Source: Candidatus Daviesbacteria bacterium
Lineage (GTDB): Bacteria > Patescibacteriota > Microgenomatia > Daviesbacterales > UBA10151
DNA length: 59,012 nt
NCBI GenBank assembly: GCA_016195715.1
Contig: JACPZA010000032.1
Coordinates: forward strand, 1 to 59,012
Reading direction: 5' to 3'
The number at the start of each line of letters is the position of its first letter. Position 1 is the stretch's first letter. Position numbers and translations under genes: made by a program. Shown here piece after piece: positions 25,248 to 49,003 of the stretch. The notes beneath the pieces are model-generated. The model made no database searches. It was not told the DNA's origin and worked only from the letters and a program-made list of their open reading frames with translations.

Positions 25248-25678
25248 ATCTTTATTGTATAGCTTAAGTTTTAAATAGCCAACTCTTATGGATGGTTGAC
25301 TTATAGATTCTAATAGTTTAAAATCTTTTTTGTTCCAAAATTTGGAGCAGACTGGAGCAAGTTCCAACTCAAGAAAGAATACTACTCATTCAGTTTAGAC
25401 CAGATAGGGTCTCTTCGAATTAATCGGAGTCATAGTTCTTTAACAACCGAAATAGTTTCCACTTTTTCGGTTTTTTTGTGCCCGAAGAAGTGGTGGGAAA
25501 TTTTTGATAAGTAAGTCAACTTGTCAATTCCGAGCAAGCTACAATCGTAACACTTTAAATAAGTGCTGCGAGGAAGAGCTTTGCTCATTCCAAAAAACAA
25601 CAATGAATTCTGTATTTTTTTAAATGCAGTGTTTTTCTGTTTCAGGAAATTTAAAAAGAAATCTTTTGATTTCTTTCT

Positions 25679-25721
<43 letters not shown>

Positions 25722-26688
25722 TAAGCATGCAAGTCGAATGGTCGCAAGACAATGGCGGACGGGTGAGTAACGCGTGGGAATCTACCTTGAAGTGGGGTAT
25801 AGCTTGCCGAAAGGCGAGGTAATACCGCATATGATCGTAAGATCAAAGTCGCAAGACGCTTTAAGATGAGCCTGCGTCCTATCAGCTAGTTGGTGGGGTA
25901 ATGGCCTACCAAGGCAACGACGGGTAGCTGGTCTGAGAGGATGGTCAGCCACAATGGAACTGAGACACGGTCCATACATCTACGGATGGCAGCAACTGGG
26001 AATATTGCGCAATGGGCGAAAGCCTGACGCAGCGACGCCGCGTGGAGGATTGAAGGCCCTCGGGTTGTAAACTCCTTTTATGTGGGAAGATTATGACGGT
26101 ACCACAAGAATAAGCACCTGCTAACTACGTGCCAGAAGCCTCGGTAATACGTAGGGTGCAAGCGTTATCCGGATTCATTGGGCGTAAAGAGTTGCGTAGG
26201 CTGTCCGATGCATTTTGTTTGAAAAGCTATAGCTTAACTATAGTTTCGGGCAAAATATGATCGGACTAGAAGGATTAAGAGGGTATTGGAACCGATTATG
26301 TAGCAGTGAAATGCGTTGATATGATCGGGAACACCAAAGGCGTAGGCAGATACCTGGTAATCCCTTGACGCTGAGGCACGAAAGCTTGGGGAGCGAAGCA
26401 GATTAGAGACCTGCGTAGTCCAAGCTGTAAACTATCTTCGCTAGATACCCGAAATTTTTTGGGTGTCGTAAGCTAACGCGTTAAGCGAAGCGCCTGGGGA
26501 GTACGATCGCAAGATTAAAACTCAAAGGAATTGACGGGGAGGCGCACAAGCAGTGGAGCGTGTGGTTTAATTCGAAACAAAGCGAAAAACCTCACCAGGG
26601 TTTGACATGCAAATGCTAATCCCATGAAAGTGGGACTCCTTCGAGGGTTTTGCACAGATGCTGCATGGCTGTCGTCAGCTCGTGGCGT

Positions 26689-27524
26689 GGGATCTGAAAT
26701 AAGATCAATCGCGCCCACCTACAGTAATGTAGGATGGAAAATTTGGCTCATATCGGTGAAGCAATTGACTTTCGGGTTATCTTAGGATAATCTAAAATCA
26801 TGTAATACCGAGGGAAGTCAGGAGTATGATATTTACAGCTCGTAAAAACCTAAAACTTGAAGTTTCTAATCGTCAAATAGAAATTCTTGTTGGTTGTTTG
26901 CTCGGTGATGCCTATCTAACTAAGTTAGGTAAAATTCAAATTGAGCAATCAGCGAAACAAAAAGAGTATATAGATTGGAAATATCAAGAACTTGCCTCTA
27001 TTAGCTATTCCCAACCTAAAATAGTTATCCGTTTTGAAAAAAACGAAAGTCGAGAAACTAAGTCATTAAGATTTTGGACTCGTCAATATTTTAGAAAATG
27101 GAGAAATAGTTTTTATCAAGGAAATCGCAAAGTTTTCCCAAAAGATTTGATTGAATGGATAACTCCTTTGGCCGTTGCCGTTTGGTATATGGATGATGGT
27201 TGTTATCAGAAATTTGATTGTACTTTATCTACAGAGTCATTTGATTTTGAAAGTAGGGAACAATTGATCAATAAATTTCAGTCTTTTGGAGTAGAGGCGA
27301 TTCCTAGAGGAAAAGGTAAGTTAAGGATTAAATCTAAAAGTTTAATCAAGTTTTTTGAGCTAATTAATCCTTATATGCATTCGAGTATGAGGTATAAACT
27401 TCCTTGACCCCGTAACGACTAATATGTGAGGTACTAGATAATCTAGAAGTAAACTTACATTATACGCCGAACATCCTTTATTAGGATGAAGGGATAGTCT
27501 AAATGTTGTCGTAAGACAATTTTG
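26689..27524 (+). mobile_element. 836-nt group I intron after the E. coli U1078 equivalent
   Basis: Exons rejoin as GCTCGTGGCGT|GAGCTGTACCGTTAAGTC. The 5' exon ends in U pairing with IGS GCGCC (26711-26715) through U.G. P7 is GACTA (about 27416) with TAGTC (about 27495); terminal G at 27524. Confidence 0.9.
26826..27407 (+). CDS. Intron-encoded LAGLIDADG homing endonuclease (LAGLIDADG_2 type)
   Basis: ILVGCLLGDA and LAVWYMDDG motifs; lies between the intron Q-like and R elements. Confidence 0.9.
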   Translation: MIFTARKNLKLEVSNRQIEILVGCLLGDAYLTKLGKIQIEQSAKQKEYIDWKYQELASISYSQPKIVIRFEKNESRETKSLRFWTRQYFRKWRNSFYQGNRKVFPKDLIEWITPLAVAVWYMDDGCYQKFDCTLSTESFDFESREQLINKFQSFGVEAIPRGKGKLRIKSKSLIKFFELINPYMHSSMRYKLP

Positions 27525-28148
27525 GAGCTGTACCGTTAAGTCGGGAAACGAGCGCAACCCGCACCGTATGTTAAATAGTTCATGCGGAACTGCCTCATTT
27601 TTTGAGGAGGAAGGCGCGGATGACGTCAAGTCAGCACGGCTCTTACACCCTGGGCTACACACACCCTACAATGGATAGTCACAACGAGTTGCAAACGGGT
27701 AACCGTAAGCTAACCTCTTAAAACTATCCTCAGTTCGGATTGAGGTCTGCAACCTGACCTCATGAAGTCGGAATTGCTAGTAATCGCGAATCAGCATGTC
27801 GCGGTGAATACGTTCTCGCCTCTTGTACACACCGCCCGTCAAGGCAGCAAAGTTGGGGGCACCCGAATCCCGGATTTATTCGGGAGAAGGTGAAACCAGC
27901 GATGAAGCTTAAGTCGTAACAAGGTATCCCTAGCCGAAGCTGGGGATGGATCACCTCCTTTCTGGAGTTTTGATTAAGCTGGAGGATTTCATAAAACCCC
28001 GCGGAGCTTTTAGCAAAGTGGGGAATGATAGCCATAGGCTTAGTCCATGATCACCTTCACGCTAGATCTAAGTAATTAGAGCTAAATGGTGATAGAAGTT
28101 TGAGAGTCTTCTTTAAAAAGCTCTCCCCACCACTTTTTTGGACACAAA

Positions 28149-37272: not shown

Positions 37273-38247
37273 TTGGTGCAAGTTGTATCTGGCGAATTTG
37301 TTAAAAACAAACGGGTTCTCCTTAGAATGGATCTAGATGTTCCCATTCAAAATGGGGTAATCCAAGAAGAATATCGCCTTATGGCAGGTTTGCCGACTTT
37401 AGAACTTTGCTTGCAAAATGCAGCATCAGTGGTAGTTTGTGGTCATATTGGAAGGCCCTTAGGTAAAGAAGTTAAAGAGTTATCAGTTGCTCCAATTGTT
37501 AATTTTTTTGAAGATTGGTACTGTGATTTAGAGTTACCTCAAGGTAGATTTCATGTTTTAGAAAACTTGCGCTTTGAAGCAGGAGAAGATAGCGGCGATT
37601 TAAATTTTGCTAAAGAATTAGCTGCTTACGGCGATGTTTATGTTTATGAGGCTTTTGCTACTCATAGAAGCGCTGCCTCCACTACAATTGTTCCAACCTT
37701 AATTCCTTCAGCTGCAGGCTTGCGCTTTGCTAAAGAAGTTGAAGTTTTACTGTCTTTAAAAAACAATCCCAAAAAACCCTTGGTGGCAATTATTGGTGGT
37801 GCTAAAGTAGAGGATAAATATCCAGCAGTCGTAGCTTTGTCTAAGTTTTGTGATGCAGTCATGGTTGGGGGATTGCTGGCTAAGCAAGTTAAAGAGCAGG
37901 ATTTGCAAATTTCTAAAAATGTTTTACTGGGAAAAATAGCAGAAAATGGGATTGATATTGATCAATCAACCATTGAAGCTTTTGCAGGAGTTATAAAGCA
38001 TGCTAAACAAGTCATTTGGGCAGGTCCAGTTGGTAAATATGAAGATCCGCAAGGTAATAAAGGAAATATAGGTTTAGCTCAAGCTGTCATAGATTCAGGG
38101 GCAGAGTCAATTATTGGTGGCGGAGATAGTATTGCCGCATTAGAGCAGTTTCTAGATAAATTTAGCTTTGTTTCAACTGGTGGAGGAGCAATGTTAAAGC
38201 TATTAATTGATGGCACACTACCAACCATCGAAGCTCTAAATCGTTGA
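37273..38247 (+). CDS. pgk: Phosphoglycerate kinase, unusually short (324 aa)
   Basis: GHIGRP, LENLRF, IIGGAKVEDK, WAGPVG, GGGDS and VSTGGGA motifs. Confidence 0.9.
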   Translation: MVQVVSGEFVKNKRVLLRMDLDVPIQNGVIQEEYRLMAGLPTLELCLQNAASVVVCGHIGRPLGKEVKELSVAPIVNFFEDWYCDLELPQGRFHVLENLRFEAGEDSGDLNFAKELAAYGDVYVYEAFATHRSAASTTIVPTLIPSAAGLRFAKEVEVLLSLKNNPKKPLVAIIGGAKVEDKYPAVVALSKFCDAVMVGGLLAKQVKEQDLQISKNVLLGKIAENGIDIDQSTIEAFAGVIKHAKQVIWAGPVGKYEDPQGNKGNIGLAQAVIDSGAESIIGGGDSIAALEQFLDKFSFVSTGGGAMLKLLIDGTLPTIEALNR

Positions 38248-38279
38248 CAGCAATTCTTTTAAAGTAGTTTACTTATATT

Positions 38280-40685
38280 ATGCCCAGAACTTCAGAGCGA
38301 GGCATTGCTCATCTAATTATCTTATTAATAGTTCTAGTCGGAATTGTTATTGGGGTTTATTTAAGTTTACATCCAACTTTTTTTCTACCTAAAGCCACCC
38401 AACCCAACTTAGCTGAGTCTACTAAATATGGAGTAAACGCTGGTGGAGTAGCCCAATCAGATCCGAAACTAAATGAAGCCTTAAGCTTAGCTTCAAGTGC
38501 TGGCATTGGTTGGATTAGAACTGGAGGCTGTAGCTGGGGTGATGTTTTAAGTAAGGATCCAGGACTTAGCTCTCCAACGCCAACCTCTCCTTGGCCAGCG
38601 GATATTTATCATTTTAGTGGTTGTGATTCTTTTATTAATAATATTGTTAACAATAACCACTTATCACTTTTAACTAACTTTTTTTATTCAACCCCTTGGT
38701 GCACCGCCTCACCTAAAGAAGGAGAATTGAATATCTTAACCAATAAACCAATTGAGGGAGCTGAGGTAGTTAAAGCTGAGCCTTGTGATTACAACAAATT
38801 CTATGATTTTGTCTATAAATTAGTAGCTAGATATGGTTCAACTGCTCACCCAGAACTAGGTTCTGATTATGGCAAAGGTTGGATTAAATATTTTGAAATT
38901 GGTAATGAGCCTGATGGGTCAAGCGGTATGTTGTATTACACTTTTGGTTCACCATCAGCAACAGTCGCACCCTCAGATACGGAAAGAAAAGTAAATATCT
39001 CCTCCCATTATGCTCATATTGTCCAAGTTGCTCATGATGCTATTAAAGCAGCAGATCCTAGCTCTCAAGTTGTATTAGGTGGGTTAATTCAAACTGTAAT
39101 TGGCGGTTCTGATCAACAGTCCACTCACCCAGATGATAATCTGCTTGATCAAATCTTAAACAACCCACCTTACAACAGCGCTCCTTACGACAATCCATAT
39201 CCTGCTGCAAATAACTTTGATATTATGAACTTTCATTGTTATTGCCCAACTTCAACTGCTTCTACAAAACTTACTCAAATTTATGATTCTTTAAAGCAAG
39301 CTGGGGTAGCTAACAAACCAATCTGGGTAACTGAAGTAGGGAGTGGGACAATAGCTGGTCAAACAGTCAGTAGTTTTCCCTGCACTGGCCAACCCGATTC
39401 TAGCGAATGTCAGCAGTCTCAAGCTAATTATTTAAAAGAGATTCTTCCGTACTTTTTAAATGGTACAACTGCCTCTGATGGAACAAAAGTCTCGGCAGAT
39501 AAAGTTTTTTGGTATTCTTTGCTTGATTCTCCAAAAGATGATAGCTCATTTTGTAGCTATGGACTAACTTGGTATGGTTCAACTGATTTTCAATGTGGTG
39601 CGCCGTCAAATCCAAGCAGTTTACCAAATCTGGTTAGCAAACTGGCCTATGCTACTTATCAGAGTTTAATTTTAGGAATTTCACCTCCACCAACTCCTAG
39701 CCCAAAGCCTAGCCTGACTCCAACCCCAGCCCCTAATAATCAAACTAGCTTTAGTCTACAACCTAACGTAGGAACTTATGCTTTAGCTAATCAACTACCA
39801 GTCTCATTACTTGCTAGAGCAGATCAATATAACTCTAATTTATTTGTAGCTAAGATGCATTTTTCTACTAGCACACTTCAAGTTAGTAGTATTAGTTTTA
39901 ATGGTACATTTATTAGACAACAAATTGAGAAAAGCTTTGATAATGTGGCTGGCACAATCTCAATTATTGGTGGGTTTGCAAATCCTGGTTTTAAAACCAG
40001 TGGTGCTCCAGCTTTAATGGCTACAATTAATTTTACCCCTAAAACTACTGGTTCTGGTTCAATTAGTTTTGATCCAAGCTCAAGCATTTTTAGGAATTCT
40101 GATAATGTAAATATTTTAAATTTATCTTTAACAACTGGAGGAAACTATACTTTCAGCTCCGGTGTTCAGCCAACTTCCACACCAACACCCACTCCAAGTC
40201 CTAGCTCTCTTCCAAGATCTACCCCAACTCCTACCCCAACCTCAGCTTCTTCCTTGTTCTCAACTTCCACTCCAACACCCACCCCGACTCAATTTAACTT
40301 TTTTCAAGGAGGAGATCAGACTTCAACTTCAACTCCAACTCCAACCGATGCATCTTTCATAGTTAATAATTTTACTCCAACACCCACACCAACTACTTCG
40401 GATAATTTCTTTATCCCTCCAACACCTACACCAACTTCTACTGCTAATTTCTTAGCCCCCACATCCACCCCAACCAGCGTTAAAGTTTCTTTAAAACCAT
40501 CTTCTTCTCCTAAAGCTCCTGTTTCTTTATCACCATTTGTTTTTAAACCATTACAAACTCCAGCTCCTTTAGTTAGACCAACACCTACTCCTAAACCACA
40601 ACTTAATCCTATTCAAGAAATCTTAGTAGGTATTGAATCATTCTTTTCTTCAATACTAAATATCTTTACCTCACCTTTTAAATAA
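38280..40685 (+). CDS. Clan GH-A glycoside hydrolase (GH39/GH5-like) with cohesin-like domain and Pro/Thr repeats
   Basis: IGNEPD (acid/base), MNFHCY, WVTEVG (nucleophile); N-terminal ERG|IAHL plus hydrophobic helix. Confidence 0.75.
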   Translation: MPRTSERGIAHLIILLIVLVGIVIGVYLSLHPTFFLPKATQPNLAESTKYGVNAGGVAQSDPKLNEALSLASSAGIGWIRTGGCSWGDVLSKDPGLSSPTPTSPWPADIYHFSGCDSFINNIVNNNHLSLLTNFFYSTPWCTASPKEGELNILTNKPIEGAEVVKAEPCDYNKFYDFVYKLVARYGSTAHPELGSDYGKGWIKYFEIGNEPDGSSGMLYYTFGSPSATVAPSDTERKVNISSHYAHIVQVAHDAIKAADPSSQVVLGGLIQTVIGGSDQQSTHPDDNLLDQILNNPPYNSAPYDNPYPAANNFDIMNFHCYCPTSTASTKLTQIYDSLKQAGVANKPIWVTEVGSGTIAGQTVSSFPCTGQPDSSECQQSQANYLKEILPYFLNGTTASDGTKVSADKVFWYSLLDSPKDDSSFCSYGLTWYGSTDFQCGAPSNPSSLPNLVSKLAYATYQSLILGISPPPTPSPKPSLTPTPAPNNQTSFSLQPNVGTYALANQLPVSLLARADQYNSNLFVAKMHFSTSTLQVSSISFNGTFIRQQIEKSFDNVAGTISIIGGFANPGFKTSGAPALMATINFTPKTTGSGSISFDPSSSIFRNSDNVNILNLSLTTGGNYTFSSGVQPTSTPTPTPSPSSLPRSTPTPTPTSASSLFSTSTPTPTPTQFNFFQGGDQTSTSTPTPTDASFIVNNFTPTPTPTTSDNFFIPPTPTPTSTANFLAPTSTPTSVKVSLKPSSSPKAPVSLSPFVFKPLQTPAPLVRPTPTPKPQLNPIQEILVGIESFFSSILNIFTSPFK

Positions 40686-40721
40686 TTGACATAACTTTTT
40701 TGAAGTGTTCTACTTGAGTTA

Positions 40722-42524
40722 ATGCCTAAATTAAATCAAGCTGGGGGAATGCCACTTTTAGTTCTACTTTCTGTAGTTGGAATAATTATTTTTTTAGTAG
40801 TCTCATCAACTGCTTCTTTTAAAGATAAATTGTTTGGTAATTTATATCAAAAACCTCAATCATTAGGTGCAACCAGTGGAGATAAATATGGAGTTAATGC
40901 TGGTGGAGTAGTCCAAAATGATCCTCAATATAATAGTGCCCTAGCTTTAGCATCAACTGCTGGTATTGGTTGGTTAAGAACTGGGGGTTGCGCTTGGGGT
41001 ACAGTTTTAGCCAGTGACCCTGGCGGATCTCCACCTTATCCAGCCAGTAAGTACAACTGGAATAACTGTGATTCTTTTATTAATAATATTGTTAACAATA
41101 ACCACCTATCACTTTTAACTAACTTCTTTTATTCCACCCCTTGGTGTACTGCTTCACCTCCTCAGGATTCAACTAATATTATTACTGGTCAAGCTATTGA
41201 TGGAGCAGCTGTGGTTAAAGCCGAACCATGTGATTATGAAAAATTTAAAGATTTTGTGACTAAACTGGTGGCTAGATATGGCTATACCGCCCACCCGGAA
41301 TATGGATCTGATTATGGTAAGGGCTGGGTTAAATATTGGGAGATAGGCAATGAACCAGATGGTTCTGGAGCAATGCTTTACTATACAGCTGGTTCACCCC
41401 CGCCAACAGTAGCTCCAACTGATACAGAAAGAGAAGTAAATATCTCCTCACATTATGCTCATATTGTCCAAGTTGCTCATGATGCTATTAAAGCAGCAGA
41501 TCCTAGCTCTCAAGTTGTATTAGGAGGGATGATTCTACCGGTTAGTGGTGGTTCAGATCAACAAACTAATCATCCTGACAATAATTTATTAGATCAGATC
41601 TTAAAAAATCCACCATATAATGTTCCCCCATATGATCAATCCAATCCGGCTGCAAATAACTTTGATATTATGAACTTTCATTGTTATTGCCCAACTTCAA
41701 CTGCTTCTACAAAACTTACTCAAATTTATAACTCTCTTAAAACAGCTGGGGTAGGGAGTAAACCTATCTGGATAACTGAGGTGGGTAGTGGTACTAAAAA
41801 TGGTCAAACTACCTCAGGTTATTCTTGCCCATCCGGTCAAGATAATTCAACTACTTGTCAGCAGTCTCAAGCTAATTATCTAACCACGATTGTTCCTTAT
41901 TTTTTAAATGGTGTAACAGCTTCAGATGGAACTTTAGTTAAAGCGGATAAAGTTTTTTGGTACTCTTTATTTGATTCTCCCGCTGATAGTAGTGGGTTTT
42001 GTAGTTATGGATTAGTTTGGTATGGAGCATCAAATTTTCAATGTGGGGTTTATCCAAATCCTACTCCTAATCCACTGCCAACTTTGGCTACTAAATTATC
42101 CTTTGCTAGTTATCAAAGCTTAATTGGTCCAAGTGTTACTTCAACTCCCACCCCAACTCCAACTAGCTCTTTACTTGCAACTCCAACCCCAGATACTGGT
42201 TTAATTGCTAGCCCAACACCCACGCCCACAGCTGGTAATTTATCTGGTTTTGTAAGTGATTCGACAAATCCTAATTCAACAACTAATCCTAATGCTCCTG
42301 CAGATAGTCAAACTAACTCAGCTTCAGCTACTGCTACACCTGTTCCATCTCCTACCCCAGCCTCGTTTATTTTCTTACCAAATTTAGGAAATTTGTCTTT
42401 TACCAGATCTGGTGACTCGAGTGATTCAGGTTTACCTAAAGCCTCAATTACTGATTTGATACCAGCAGTAGGTCAATTCTTTAAAACCTTAAGTAGTTTT
42501 GTTAACTCTATTATCAAAAGATAA
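40722..42524 (+). CDS. Tandem paralog GH-A glycoside hydrolase with Ser/Thr/Pro tail
   Basis: WEIGNEPD and WITEVG; clear homology to 38280..40685. Confidence 0.75.
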   Translation: MPKLNQAGGMPLLVLLSVVGIIIFLVVSSTASFKDKLFGNLYQKPQSLGATSGDKYGVNAGGVVQNDPQYNSALALASTAGIGWLRTGGCAWGTVLASDPGGSPPYPASKYNWNNCDSFINNIVNNNHLSLLTNFFYSTPWCTASPPQDSTNIITGQAIDGAAVVKAEPCDYEKFKDFVTKLVARYGYTAHPEYGSDYGKGWVKYWEIGNEPDGSGAMLYYTAGSPPPTVAPTDTEREVNISSHYAHIVQVAHDAIKAADPSSQVVLGGMILPVSGGSDQQTNHPDNNLLDQILKNPPYNVPPYDQSNPAANNFDIMNFHCYCPTSTASTKLTQIYNSLKTAGVGSKPIWITEVGSGTKNGQTTSGYSCPSGQDNSTTCQQSQANYLTTIVPYFLNGVTASDGTLVKADKVFWYSLFDSPADSSGFCSYGLVWYGASNFQCGVYPNPTPNPLPTLATKLSFASYQSLIGPSVTSTPTPTPTSSLLATPTPDTGLIASPTPTPTAGNLSGFVSDSTNPNSTTNPNAPADSQTNSASATATPVPSPTPASFIFLPNLGNLSFTRSGDSSDSGLPKASITDLIPAVGQFFKTLSSFVNSIIKR

Positions 42525-42567
42525 TTTGGGGTATTTATTTTTTAATTAATTTGGTAATATCTTATTT

Positions 42568-43587
42568 ATGCTTCGTGTTGCTATAAATGGGTTTGGTAGA
42601 ATAGGGAGAAACGCTTTTAAAGTAGCTTTAGATAAACATTCAGAAAATTTAGAAATTGTTGCCATCAATGATCTAACTTCCCCCCAAGTTTTAGCGCATC
42701 TTTTAAAATATGACAGTGCTTATCGAACTTGGGATAAAGAAGTTAGCAGTGATGAACAAAATATCATTGTTGATGGTAAAAAGTACCCAATATTAAAAGA
42801 ATTAGATCCTGCAAAGCTCCCATGGACTCAATATAATGTTGATGTAGTCATTGAATCTACTGGCCGGTTTGCCAAACAAGAAGATATGAATTTACATTTG
42901 CAAGCTGGAGCTAAAAAAGTGGTTTTGTCTGCACCAGCCAAGGGTGGTGGAGTTGGAACTTTTTTAGTGGGAGTAAATGCAGATAAATACAATGGAGAAA
43001 ATTTAGTTAATAATGCATCTTGTACCACAAACTGTATTGCTCCAGTTGCAGCTGTCATGCATTCTAAATTTGGGGTAGCTAAAGCTTTAATGACTACAGT
43101 TCACTCTGTTACAGCTGAACAAAACTTAGTTGATGGACCACCACCTGGTGGAAAGTCCAATGATTTGCGTCGAGCCAGAGCCGCTTATGCTAACATTATT
43201 CCCACCACTACCGGTGCAGCTATTTCTACAACTGAGGTTATTCCAGAACTAAAGGGGTTATTTGATGGAGTTGCTTTAAGAGTACCAACAATCGTTGGAT
43301 CTTTATCTGATTTTACATTTTTACTTAAGAAAAAAACTAGCATTGAAGAGATTAATCAAGCAATTAAAGAGGCTTGCAATGATCCTCGCTGGCAAGGGAT
43401 TTTGGCTTGGAGCGAAGAACCTTTAGTCTCATCTGATATTATAGGTAGGTCAGAATCAGCCATAGTTGATCTATCTTTAACTCAAGTAGTGGATGGGGAT
43501 TTAGTTAAAATTTTTGCTTGGTATGATAATGAATGGGGCTATTCTAATAGGCTAATTGAGATGGTGATTAATATATCTAAAAAGTAA
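42568..43587 (+). CDS. gap: Type I glyceraldehyde-3-phosphate dehydrogenase
   Basis: INGFGRIGR, NASCTTNC, RRAR, PTTTGAA and WYDNEWGYS motifs. Confidence 0.97.
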   Translation: MLRVAINGFGRIGRNAFKVALDKHSENLEIVAINDLTSPQVLAHLLKYDSAYRTWDKEVSSDEQNIIVDGKKYPILKELDPAKLPWTQYNVDVVIESTGRFAKQEDMNLHLQAGAKKVVLSAPAKGGGVGTFLVGVNADKYNGENLVNNASCTTNCIAPVAAVMHSKFGVAKALMTTVHSVTAEQNLVDGPPPGGKSNDLRRARAAYANIIPTTTGAAISTTEVIPELKGLFDGVALRVPTIVGSLSDFTFLLKKKTSIEEINQAIKEACNDPRWQGILAWSEEPLVSSDIIGRSESAIVDLSLTQVVDGDLVKIFAWYDNEWGYSNRLIEMVINISKK

Positions 43588-43750
43588 CTCTAGCGCTTGA
43601 CTCCTATCTTTAAGTTTGGTATATTTCAAAAAGTGATTAAACTAGCGAGAAACAACGCCACTTTAAATTAACTTTCCGTGCTTGGGTCTTCCATGCGGAA
43701 GGCTTTCAAGCGTTGCATCCCTCAGATTAAAAAAAATAATAGTTCGGACC

Positions 43751-43823
43751 GGGCCCATGGCTCAGTTGGTAGAGCGCTTCATTTGCAATGAAGAGGTCAG
43801 GAGTTCGAATCTCCTTGGGTCCA
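43751..43823 (+). tRNA. tRNA-Ala(TGC), CCA not encoded
   Basis: Acceptor GGGCCCA/TGGGTCC, anticodon arm CTTCA-TTTGCAA-TGAAG, T-loop TTCGAAT. Confidence 0.94.
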
Positions 43824-43825
43824 CA

Positions 43826-43896
43826 CTTCGCTAAAGCTACGTGTGGCAGGCCACAACGGAGAAGCAAGAAGTGTGCTCCATGTAGTTTTAACGAAG
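43826..43896. repeat. REP-like inverted repeat directly after tRNA-Ala
   Basis: CTTCGCTAAAGCTACG pairs with TGTAGTTTTAACGAAG. Confidence 0.65.
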
Positions 43897-44104
43897 CGGA
43901 GCTATCTATTGGTAAAGAGATAAAGATTTTTAATTTCTTGAAAGTCTCTATCTAGGTACCAAAATCCTATTCTGAACCGGAAGGTTGAGAGCAAAGATCG
44001 GTAAAAAGATTTTTGGAGTTTGTACTTTAAAATGTGAATACGACAATATGAAGGCCAAATTAGTTCACTACTTTTCAAGTAGTAGTGAACAAAAAAAGCC
44101 AAAA

Positions 44105-47053
<2,949 letters not shown>

Positions 47054-47124
47054 GACTTTGGTCATGGTTTTTCTATGACATAGTTGGCTTTCTGAAGTCG
47101 TATTCACATTTTTTTGTACAAACT

Positions 47125-47153
47125 TTGCATTTTGACTTCTAACTTTGTATAAT
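47125..47153 (+). promoter_or_regulatory. Candidate dedicated 5S promoter, TTGCAT-17-TATAAT
   Basis: Predicted start falls at about 47160, the 5S 5' end. Confidence 0.5.
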
Positions 47154-47158
47154 ATGTT

Positions 47159-47274
47159 TCTGGTGGTTTTTGCGAGATGGCCCGACCTGATCCCATCCCG
47201 AACTCAGTAGTCAAACGTCTCAGCGGGGACGATAATGCAGCCTCACGGCTGTGTGAAAATACCTCACTGCCAGA
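47159..47274 (+). rRNA. rrf: 5S rRNA
   Basis: TCTGGTGG/CTGCCAGA terminal stem; CCTGATCCCATCCCGAACTCAG loop C motif. Confidence 0.93.
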
Positions 47275-47282
47275 TTTGAATT

Positions 47283-47312
47283 AAAGGCGAGCCTAAAGCT
47301 CGCCTTTTTCTT
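47283..47312 (+). terminator. rRNA locus terminator
   Basis: AAAGGCGAGC-CTAAA-GCTCGCCTTT followed by T run. Confidence 0.88.
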
Positions 47313-47362
47313 TAATTACCACTTGACAAGAATTTTCTGGGCAAATACTATAAATTAAGAAT

Positions 47363-49003
47363 ATGTATCTGCTCAAAAGAGTTTATGATCAAAAAGGATC
47401 AGCCCCGGTTTTGGTTTTAATCGCAGTTTTAGGTCTAATTAGTTTTCTAGCTATCTCTTCAACTTTTAACTTTAAAAATAAACTTTTTGGATCTTTGTAT
47501 CCTAAACCTGCTTCTCATGCTGCCACTGCTAGTGCCCAACCTAATATTATAGTTTTAATGTCTGATGATCAAACTTTAGCTCAACAAGCATTTTTACCTA
47601 AGATTAATTCTTTAATTCGCGATCAAGGCACTAACTTTACTAATTTTTTTACTACCAACTCTTTATGTTGTCCATCAAGAGCTACTTTTTTATCTGGACA
47701 ATATTCTCATAATAATAATGTCTGGGATGATCAAGGAACTTTTGCCTATCCAGCTTTTGATAACTCTAAATCTCTACCTTTGTGGTTACAGTCTGTAGGT
47801 TATACTACAGCTCATTTTGGAAAATATTTAAACGGTTATACCCCAACAACTAGCAATCCCTTTGTTCCAGCTGGGTGGAATGAGTTTTATGGTGGAGTAG
47901 GGACTACTATTTATAAATATTGGGGTTATACTTTAAATGAGATGAATGCTACTCAATCAGCTCATCTTGTCCAATATCCTAATGACAATTCAGCAGATCC
48001 AGTTGGCTCTGATAAATACCATCAAGTTAATTTAGTTGCCTCAAAAGCAGTAGATTTTATTAATAGACATGCTAGTGATACTAAACCTTACTTTATGTGG
48101 GTAGCGATGTTTGCTCCACATGAAGGAGGACCAGGAACTAATGGTGCAACCCCCTCTCATGCCCACGCTCATGACTTTGACACTGCAATATTACCAAAAA
48201 ATCCCAACTTTAATGAAGCTGATGTCTCAGATAAACCTAGTATGATCTCAAGCCAGCCGTTAATGACCACTAAGGCGATTAACCAAGCCCAAGCCAGGTG
48301 GAGAAATGCACTTGATGCTATCCAATCAGAAGATGATGCTGCCAACAACATAATTAATGCGCTAAATTCAACTGGAAAGTTAAACAATACCATTATCATC
48401 TTTACTACAGATAATGGTTACTTTTACGGTGAACATAGATGGCCAAAAGGTAAGATTTTAAATTATGAGGAGTCAATTCACTTACCCTTTATGATTAGAG
48501 GTCCTGGTATTCCAGTTCAGTCAATTAATGCTTTAACAGCTACCATTGATTGGGCCCCAACCATAGCTGATTATGGCCAAGTACCAGGTGCTAACACTAC
48601 TAGAGTATTAGACGGGATGTCAGTTAAACCTTTAATCGCTACTCCCTCTACGGCTTGGAGAAATACTTTATTAGTTGAAGCCACAACTAAAGAATATTTT
48701 GGAGTTATAGCTCAAACCTTTAGTGGTGGAAACATTACTGGTAACTGGATGTATACAGAACATGCTACTTCAACTACTAACCCCAAAGAGCTATATGACA
48801 AAATTGCTGATCCTTGGGAGTTGAATAACTTAATGTATTCTGACCCACCAAAGCTAGATCCAAACTTAGTAACTACTCTCAGTCAACTTAAAACTTGTAA
48901 CCAAACAGGTGGTGTCAGCTGTGCAAGTATTAGCTATGCTACTGCAAGTGCTACACTAATGCCAACCCCGACAGCCAGTTCTTCCGCTGCGCCTACACCT
49001 TAA
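47363..49003 (+). CDS. Cys-type sulfatase (N-acetylglucosamine-6-sulfatase-like) with pilin-like N-terminus
   Basis: PNIIVLMSDDQ, CCPSR (formylglycine motif), GKYLNGY, DNG...GEH and ELYD..DPWEL.NL; TTGACA-17-TACTAT promoter. Confidence 0.85.
   Translation: MYLLKRVYDQKGSAPVLVLIAVLGLISFLAISSTFNFKNKLFGSLYPKPASHAATASAQPNIIVLMSDDQTLAQQAFLPKINSLIRDQGTNFTNFFTTNSLCCPSRATFLSGQYSHNNNVWDDQGTFAYPAFDNSKSLPLWLQSVGYTTAHFGKYLNGYTPTTSNPFVPAGWNEFYGGVGTTIYKYWGYTLNEMNATQSAHLVQYPNDNSADPVGSDKYHQVNLVASKAVDFINRHASDTKPYFMWVAMFAPHEGGPGTNGATPSHAHAHDFDTAILPKNPNFNEADVSDKPSMISSQPLMTTKAINQAQARWRNALDAIQSEDDAANNIINALNSTGKLNNTIIIFTTDNGYFYGEHRWPKGKILNYEESIHLPFMIRGPGIPVQSINALTATIDWAPTIADYGQVPGANTTRVLDGMSVKPLIATPSTAWRNTLLVEATTKEYFGVIAQTFSGGNITGNWMYTEHATSTTNPKELYDKIADPWELNNLMYSDPPKLDPNLVTTLSQLKTCNQTGGVSCASISYATASATLMPTPTASSSAAPTP

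Follow-up and report, generated by a model that had tools for sequence, protein, structure and literature searches.

Bacteria of the Candidate Phyla Radiation (CPR; Patescibacteria) are believed to spend their lives on other cells and to depend on resources stripped from their surroundings, which raises the question of how their hydrolases reach and stay on the cell surface. It is posed in concrete form by a 59,012-nucleotide window (the whole stretch of DNA analysed here), which constitutes contig C36 of a 1.15-Mb, 99.5% complete genome from what we take to be a tiny, Daviesbacteria-like groundwater CPR bacterium; other C-numbers below denote further contigs of the same genome. The window codes for three secreted enzymes, namely two glycoside hydrolases, here called GH1 and GH2, and a sulfatase, whose open reading frames (ORFs) and translations are exactly as described in an earlier note on this DNA, with the N-termini MPRTSERG-IAHLIILLIVLVG, MPKLNQAG-GMPLLVLLSVVG and MYLLKRVYDQKG-SAPVLVLIAVLG, respectively. 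That note read these starts as non-canonical class III (type IV prepilin-like) signals, cut by the prepilin peptidase PilD after the Gly, with the enzymes displayed on or by a pilus-like assembly. Our analysis points elsewhere: the leaders are not members of any described signal-peptide family and are probably lineage-specific, unusually long Sec leaders, which the general signal peptidase I is predicted to cut at a conserved S-x-A motif on the outer side of the membrane.

A portable leader on unrelated exported proteins

The motif SST..FK.KLFG.LY.KP.S.A, which the earlier note had picked out as common to GH2 and the sulfatase despite their unrelated catalytic domains, is shared far above chance expectation. 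A profile made from the first 62 residues of these two proteins retrieved seven more ORFs in the genome (E 5e-21 to 2e-7), and a further copy sits on a glycoside hydrolase cut by a contig end, bringing the complement of this leader, which we term type A, to 10 in the genome; the family profile is matched best by the sulfatase leader (4.5e-30). In this genome the leader precedes clan GH-A hydrolases that contain Ig-like repeats, a subtilase complete with its pro-domain, an HExxH protein bearing fn3 domains, a 1299-aa protein that combines a cohesin-like domain and a dockerin, a small protein of cohesin-like/dockerin type and two sulfatases.

Searched exhaustively with HMMER, a set of 1.84 billion representative proteins yielded 618 clusters that match the leader profile at E <= 0.001 (224 at 1e-10), and in all of them the match is N-terminal, beginning within the first ~25 residues. 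Counting the domains attached to the leader, as the earlier note had advised, revealed at least 44 Pfam cargo families among the 82 leader-bearing members scanned, including Big_7 (25), Peptidase_S8 (19), dockerin (9), purple acid phosphatase (7) and PF00963 cohesin (4), along with CBM60 (a carbohydrate-binding module family), GH5 and M11; no pilin domain was found among these scanned cargos. The leader genes are dispersed among housekeeping genes in this genome and in two relatives; in the latter, the two leader genes whose surroundings were inspected have housekeeping neighbours only, with no conserved partner gene. Type A is a portable N-terminal unit. The idea of a shuffled targeting module is thereby borne out for GH2 and the sulfatase, whereas the leader of GH1 turned out to be a separate module, which we call type B and take up below.

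When five leader sequences were compared with Pfam and NCBIfam at E <= 10, only noise was returned; a word-indexed search with the subtilase leader region brought back nothing but the query, and a literature search found no paper on the type A leader. Its spread is patchy, covering 8 of the 25 genera sampled in the family and 4 of the 201 genomes sampled across the class, and it is restricted to one CPR family.

Conservation pattern and predicted cleavage

The leaders are about 40-55 residues long (~53 in type A), with a basic, Lys/Arg-rich start followed by a hydrophobic helix of 20-23 residues. Among the best 150 family members, information peaks at Q10, G12 and P/H15 and along one face of the helix (L17, A21, G24, F28 and S32). 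The strongest conservation, though, lies outside the membrane, in the stretch F37-K-D-x-L-F42-x-x-L45-F-P-K48-P-x-S51-x-A53, with the consensus F-K-D-K-L-F-x-x-L-F-P-K-P-x-S-x-A. Here F37, K48, S51 and A53 are invariant in type A, and F37, L41, F42, L45 and F46 line the hydrophobic side of an amphipathic helix that is short. Right after A53 the conservation drops abruptly.

The residues around this boundary have the character of a signal peptidase I site. Of the 150 top members, 144 have a site that can be recognised. In these, Ala fills position -1 in 143 (99%) and Ser fills -3 in 141 (98%), while the residue at -2 varies and is bulky (H, F, Q, K, Y or R); Pro occupies -5 and -7, is never found at +1 and occurs once at +2, as against 9-16% at each of +3 to +10. 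A charged n-region and an h-region precede the site, and a peptidase that could act there is encoded at C8:14118-14702: this LepB (Peptidase_S26, 8e-49) retains the catalytic motifs SGSSMFPTL, KRIIGVPGD and GDNRLASSDSR and is the sole general signal peptidase I in the genome. The other S26 match, at C9:15775-16131, was considered as a second, dedicated signal peptidase and rejected, being a small nickel superoxide dismutase (NiSOD) maturation protease beside sodN; the NiSOD gene itself, whose product has the N-terminus ..HCDVPCGIYDP, directly precedes this protease (C9:15323-16131 for the pair).

Comparisons within protein families place the boundary at the same point. Aligned with one another, the genome's five sulfatase paralogs coincide at A↓AT.S..PN(I/V)(I/V)V (the arrow marks the predicted cut), and one of them, C12_77279, bears an ordinary 31-aa signal peptide, ...KTQA↓ATTSSKPNIIV, whose predicted T-Q-A↓ cut falls at the same aligned position. 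Among the subtilase cargos, 17 of 19 have a Fervidolysin-type pro-domain after the leader, which in C5_14636 begins ~10 residues past the S-x-A site. As the pro-domain comes directly after it, the leader holds the 'pre' position of a pre-pro enzyme, and since pro-domains are removed on maturation, it cannot serve as a lasting anchor in this largest cargo class. Three independent observations, namely the sulfatase-paralog boundary, the pre-pro order of the subtilases and the intact LepB, are in accord with a cut at A53. In GH2, the corresponding cut is predicted after G49 or A50 (S-L-G↓A or L-G-A↓T).

Four parts make up a type A leader: a basic start ending in N-Q-K-G; a single membrane helix with the conserved face noted above; the short amphipathic helix F-K-D-K-L-F-x-x-L-F, probably resting on the outer membrane surface; and a P-K-P turn leading into S-x-A. 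The Sec translocon would insert this leader with its N-terminus kept inside the cell, the surface helix would keep the S-x-A site at the membrane surface, and LepB would cleave after the Ala, freeing the enzyme. We infer the role of the surface helix in returning the site to the peptidase because the cut would fall ~18-20 residues past the hydrophobic core. Once freed, an enzyme may stay at the cell by means of its own C-terminal parts, such as cohesin-like or dockerin domains, Ig-like domains or an amphipathic C-terminal helix. The conserved Q-K-G start and helix face suggest a specific partner for targeting or timing, comparable to the role proposed for the YSIRK and ESPR motifs.

Several points weigh against this interpretation. 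The distance of ~18-20 residues from core to cut departs from the short c-region of ordinary signal peptidase I substrates, where it is ~3-7 residues. The inner N-Q-K-G is conserved like the outer motif, which plain Sec export leaves unexplained. PilD mainly requires Gly at -1 and tolerates the loss of Glu+5, and a 609-aa protein of the pilus locus, C35_98081, starts with MKKLLNQKG and a helix lacking Glu5, scoring borderline on the leader profile (E 0.05). The fit to signal peptidase I is weaker for type B, including GH1, because -3 is often Pro there, and the top-150 list underlying the site statistics favours complete leaders. As Gly at -1 rather than Glu5 is the main requirement of PilD, trimming by PilD after the conserved Q-K-G may occur as well.

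Comparison with known signal peptides clarifies how the type A leader departs from precedent. With ordinary Sec type I signal peptides of monoderms (substrates of LepB/SipS) it shares a basic start, a hydrophobic core, helix-breaking prolines, small residues at -3 and -1, variability at -2 and the absence of Pro from +1, and the corresponding LepB is encoded in the genome. In contrast, those peptides are ~25-35 aa long, whereas the type A leader has ~53 aa, places its cut beyond an extra amphipathic helix and shows domain-like conservation in hundreds of proteins that are otherwise unrelated. A likeness in kind is offered by the described specialised motifs YSIRK-G/S (PF04650), the ESPR of autotransporters (PF13018), KxYKxGKxW (TIGR03715) and the SipW-cognate signal (TIGR04088): each is a lineage-restricted motif in a Sec-type leader with many surface or secreted cargos, and such motifs are considered to govern the place or speed of export. 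None of their models was matched by the five leaders in the Pfam and NCBIfam comparison, and the present leader differs further in that its conservation extends through the membrane helix and to both sides of it, with the longest motif outside, and in its confinement to one CPR family.

A sister leader and exchange among paralogs

The GH1 leader again has a basic start and one membrane helix, with the motif G-V-Y-L...F-x-P-K-A. It has only the start (R-G-I-A-H-L) in common with type A, after which it continues as G-I-x-I-G-V-Y-L...P-T-F-F-L-P-K-A. Within the genome this type B leader also occurs on C9_18976 and C35_66710; unlike the patchy type A, it was found in 25 of the 25 sampled genera of the family. 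In the relatives it always ends in ...K-A, after which the sequences diverge; the putative -1 is always Ala, and -3 is frequently Pro in type B, GH1 included. Judged by its sequence, type B is a sister leader of type A.

Among the seven glycoside hydrolase and five sulfatase paralogs of the genome, leaders of type A and type B occur alongside degenerate and ordinary ones. Because paralogs of the same enzyme differ in this way, leaders must have been exchanged among them.

Alternative readings

Rather than by LepB, the S-x-A site could be cut, or the enzymes directed, by a membrane partner dedicated to the leader, be it a special protease or a sorting factor, with the leader as its N-terminal tag. 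We consider this unlikely. It would account for conservation of the whole leader beyond the needs of Sec (the helix face, F37, K48, S51, A53 and Q-K-G) and sits well with the patchy spread, the coexistence of at least two leader flavours and the lack of any matching Pfam or NCBIfam model. Yet no candidate for such a partner turned up either in the neighbourhoods of the two leader genes or in the distribution of PilD, the dispersal of leader genes among housekeeping genes, both in this genome and in two relatives, offers no linked gene, general signal peptidase I and PilD are each represented once per genome, and a site that obeys the general signal peptidase I rule leaves a special enzyme unneeded.

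We regard it as quite improbable that the leader is instead retained as an uncleaved signal-anchor, with F-K-D-K-L-F..L-F-P-K-P-x-S-x-A as a conserved juxtamembrane stalk. The hydrophobic segment is as long as a membrane span and far from the putative cut site, and CPR bacteria, being monoderm-like, would gain from surface-held enzymes (PMC6744442). Under such a reading, coincidence would have to explain the -3/-1 pattern, the exclusion of Pro from +1 and the sharp drop in conservation, the pre-pro subtilases would shed their N-terminal anchor during maturation, and the sulfatase paralog C12_77279, with its ordinary cleavable signal peptide, would align at the same boundary for no reason.

A broader scenario, to which we assign a similarly low probability, would unite type A, type B and related Q-K-G-F starts as tags of an undescribed N-terminal sorting route of Daviesbacteria. 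In this route, PilD or a different membrane enzyme would trim at Q-K-G, the helix face would dock to a partner in the membrane, the S-x-A cut would be made only at a set place or time, and hydrolases by the dozen would be passed to a cohesin-like/dockerin surface assembly. If true, it would parallel, in bacteria, the archaeal class III 'bindosome' route.

The reading from which this analysis started, that these are class III signals, is the one we find very improbable. Its genomic premise is sound: a PilD gene (C35:90794-91702; A24_N_bact 5.7e-25 plus Peptidase_A24) adjoins PilB, PilT and PilC, so the absence of PilD that the earlier note had named as refutation does not apply. As a general observation, the type IV pilus locus is complete (C35:86131-99910), with PilB, PilT, PilC, PilD, at least 10 pilins, a PilX_N protein and C35_98081, and two smaller pilin clusters lie at C35:1812-7401 and C28:16906-18039. 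The enzymes also resemble class III substrates in their short polar or basic leader ending in Gly before a helix: all three enzymes have this Gly, as do 147 of 151 top members (best 150 hits), and the +1 residue is A, V, I or F. Glu5 is lacking in two proteins of the pilus locus itself, C35_96182 (a PilX_N protein) and C35_98081, and Saccharibacterial PilX1 and PilX2 provide a published case of non-canonical signals on CPR pilus proteins (PMC12206443).

Beyond pili, there is a resemblance to the archaeal sugar-binding proteins with class III signals (the Sulfolobus 'bindosome'), which establish that non-pilin cargo can use them. Against these likenesses, the enzymes are unlike the pilins of their own genome, which number ~15 in canonical form (K-G-F-T-L-I-E, cut as G↓FTLIE). 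PF07963 (N_methyl) at E <= 1 retrieves 15-16 pilins and none of the enzymes; a hidden Markov model (HMM) of the genome's own 14 pilin leaders scores pilins at 38-58 bits and the leader enzymes at -1 bit or below, or leaves them unreported; and PROSITE (PS00409-like) and FlaFind-type patterns miss all three enzymes. As the earlier note had itself remarked, Glu+5 is lacking: the residue at this position is I, L and L in GH1, GH2 and the sulfatase, Leu in 131 of 151 top members and Glu in none. This absence makes incorporation into the body of a pilus filament unlikely, and Pro/His at +3 marks a further difference from class III signals. Some copies dispense with the Gly itself: 2 of the 10 in this genome and 3 of 9 from relatives lack it while retaining the helix and the outer motif. 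Moreover, the second and stronger conserved site lies on the outer rather than the cytoplasmic side of the membrane, and removal of the subtilase pro-domains also speaks against N-terminal display. No pilin fold or head domain follows the helix, the cargos being enzymes (a TIM barrel in GH2), Ig-like domains, cohesins or dockerins and carbohydrate-binding modules, and the genes lie outside the pilus loci. Nor does PilD track the leader: it occurs once in each of the 15 relatives tested (15/15), including 7 of 7 genomes without type A.

The PilX-type minor pilins of Saccharibacteria (PMC12206443; PilX_N, PF14341) are a further likeness, in that they combine a Gly and helix without Glu5 with big domains. 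The enzymes differ from them in being encoded outside pilus loci and in having no PilX_N match, and a profile of the N-terminal half of the leader gave no match at E < 10 to the Glu5-less PilX-like proteins of the pilus locus.

A mirror image of sortase-type sorting was rejected, since the leaders contain nothing resembling LPXTG and, by that chemistry, it would be the leader and not the cargo that became attached.

Starts ending in Gly are also found elsewhere in the genome. About ten more exported proteins begin with [QKR]-G-F and a helix without Glu5, often followed by G-x-G-G-Y-Y (C8:6671-8140, C20:8965-9492, C30:26695-28641, C3:39896-40723, C12:63992-64963 and C11:22109-22639); one of these is a phosphoesterase-family enzyme. 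Across the 175 ORFs with a single N-terminal helix, a Gly follows the last polar residue in 29, and 10 of these are canonical pilins.

The enzymes of the window

GH1 and GH2 are paralogs with 65% identity. GH1 is laid out as leader, catalytic barrel, cohesin-like domain, Pro/Thr-rich tail and C-terminal helix, and such tails are found in all three enzymes, in keeping with the stalks that the earlier note had described. Both glycoside hydrolases have weak Pfam matches to GH5 (Cellulase) and Glyco_hydro_cc (E ~1e-5, barely over the cut-offs). A sequence search of the PDB with GH2 gave nothing meaningful, and a word-indexed homolog search returned only itself, GH1 and one leader-only match. An alignment of seven sequences (GH1, GH2, four more in-genome paralogs and P0010 from a relative) shows the Asn and Glu of N-E-P (N210 and E211 in GH2) and the Thr and Glu of T-E (T352 and E353) to be invariant; by analogy with clan GH-A enzymes, these two Glu residues are the putative acid/base and nucleophile. 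The AlphaFold (AF2) model of GH2 has a modest overall predicted local distance difference test score (pLDDT 59.5), with the core barrel blocks at 80-94, and comprises a helix at 10-29, another at 31-41, a disordered linker that holds the cut site, and the barrel from 56. In a Foldseek search, this model matched PslG best (5bx9, E 1.8e-10), followed by GH5 mannanases and GH53 galactanases, with E values from 1e-10 to 1e-7 over this range. The likeness to PslG (the hydrolase of the Psl exopolysaccharide in P. aeruginosa) and to GH5/GH53 enzymes thus consists of superposition with the modelled fold and the N-E-P and T-E motifs, while sequence identity to these structures is just 12-16%. With the barrel and both catalytic-type Glu motifs in place, GH1 and GH2 are, by model and motif, enzymes of clan GH-A (GH5/GH39/GH53-like).

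Similar amphipathic C-termini follow the Pro/Thr-rich stalks in GH1 (40620-40682, ..GIESFFSSILNIFTSPFK) and GH2 (42456-42518, ..VGQFFKTLSSFVNSIIKR), and may serve as surface- or membrane-binding tails.

The sulfatase is nearest by sequence to GlcNAc-6-O-sulfatases and mucin-desulfating sulfatases, its best PDB relatives being the N-acetylglucosamine-6-sulfatase 5g2v (1.9e-30) and a mucin-desulfating sulfatase. It is one of five Cys-type sulfatases in the genome, all with SLCCPSR, the others lying at C30:21405-23120, C17:11273-12736, C12:77279-78778 and C35:66710-69352. The maturase that the earlier note had suggested looking for did not emerge: neither a formylglycine-generating enzyme (FGE, PF03781) nor an anaerobic sulfatase-maturating enzyme (anSME, TIGR03942) was matched at E <= 0.1 in this nearly complete genome. 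With a sulfatase near GlcNAc-6-sulfatases and a GH2 fold near PslG, the proposal that the enzymes act on sulfated or exopolysaccharide glycans is plausible.

Cohesin-like domains and a possible assembly

The cohesin-like domain that the earlier note had mentioned lies in GH1 and is a real, recurring domain family: the segment of residues 488-627 has counterparts in C35_123595, in C28_34816 and in 10 proteins from other sources that bear the leader. A relationship to cohesins is only marginally indicated. When a 14-copy profile was compared with the PDB, cohesins took the first two places, aligned over the full length with E 0.048-0.052, and the GH1 segment alone has no Pfam Cohesin match at E <= 1. 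In all, leader-bearing proteins include carriers of a cohesin-like domain of ~135 aa and of type I dockerins (E ~1e-7), and one small protein has both; apart from the copy in GH1, the loci are C35:123595-124458, C28:34816-38715 and C35:124500-125732. This hints at a cellulosome-like enzyme assembly in a CPR bacterium.

Genomic context

GH1 and GH2 stand head to tail between pgk and gap (window 37273-43587 for pgk-GH1-GH2-gap), all on one strand with spacers of 32-43 bp. This same-strand insertion with short spacers suggests that the two hydrolases are co-transcribed with genes of central carbon metabolism. Further along the contig come tRNA-Ala, 23S rRNA and 5S rRNA, then the sulfatase and an S1-domain gene (Table 1). 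In a related assembly, the syntenic slot between the 23S rRNA and the S1-domain gene is occupied not by a sulfatase but by a leader-bearing Glyco_hydro_cc enzyme (L038:7001-9175), so that the two assemblies have the same leader with different cargo in this position; the 23S rRNA there has LAGLIDADG introns. The 16S rRNA gene of the window is itself enlarged to ~2.28 kb (25678-27959) by an insertion that encodes a LAGLIDADG homing endonuclease (ORF 26826-27407; PF03161, 1e-33), and ~16 kb of protein-coding and tRNA genes separate it from the 23S/5S genes (44106-47275).

Table 1. Features of the window, with positions numbered from its first nucleotide
Feature	Position	Strand	Description
GH1	38280..40685	+	801 aa; secreted clan GH-A glycoside hydrolase; Pfam Cellulase and Glyco_hydro_cc
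GH1 leader, type B	38280..38396	+	aa 1-39, MPRTSERG-IAHLIILLIVLVGIVIGVYLSLHPTFFLPKA
GH1 catalytic (beta/alpha)8 domain	38421..39689	+	~aa 48-470; from alignment with GH2 and five other paralogs, and Pfam
GH1 cohesin-like beta domain	39741..40160	+	aa 488-627
GH1 Pro/Thr-rich tail and C-terminal amphipathic segment	40161..40685	+	ends ...ILVGIESFFSSILNIFTSPFK; from translation
GH2	40722..42524	+	600 aa; secreted clan GH-A glycoside hydrolase, paralog of GH1
GH2 leader, type A	40722..40871	+	aa 1-49/50, MPKLNQAG-GMPLLVLLSVVGIIIFLVVSSTASFKDKLFGNLYQKPQSLG(A); family profile match 1.1e-24
GH2 Glu211 of N-E-P	41352..41354	+	putative acid/base; N210 and E211 invariant
GH2 Glu353 of T-E	41778..41780	+	putative nucleophile; T352 and E353 invariant
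GH2 C-terminal amphipathic helix	42456..42518	+	aa 579-599; predicted, low pLDDT; resembles the GH1 C-terminus
Sulfatase	47363..49003	+	546 aa; Cys-type S1; Pfam Sulfatase (PF00884) 5.8e-37, SGSH_C 7e-12
Sulfatase leader, type A	47363..47521	+	aa 1-53, MYLLKRVYDQKG-SAPVLVLIAVLGLISFLAISSTFNFKNKLFGSLYPKPASHA; predicted cut A53↓A54
Sulfatase catalytic domain	47540..48841	+	aa 60-493; Pfam coordinates
Formylglycine motif C-C-P-S-R	47666..47680	+	Cys102 to Arg106; regular expression on the translation
gap	42568-43587		unrelated gene within the interval
tRNA-Ala	43751-43824		unrelated gene within the interval
23S rRNA	44106-47051		unrelated gene within the interval
5S rRNA	47159-47275		unrelated gene within the interval

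Implications

The idea of pilin-like enzymes, attractive yet unsupported, thus gives way to a leader with a different likely mode of action. Its domain-like conservation hints at a specific partner, and it may serve as an export tag for the expression of CPR enzymes. The leader marks the exported hydrolases of one CPR family, encompassing glycosidases, sulfatases, subtilases and phosphatases together with cohesin/dockerin proteins, and therefore provides a sequence handle for listing the exoproteome of this lineage.

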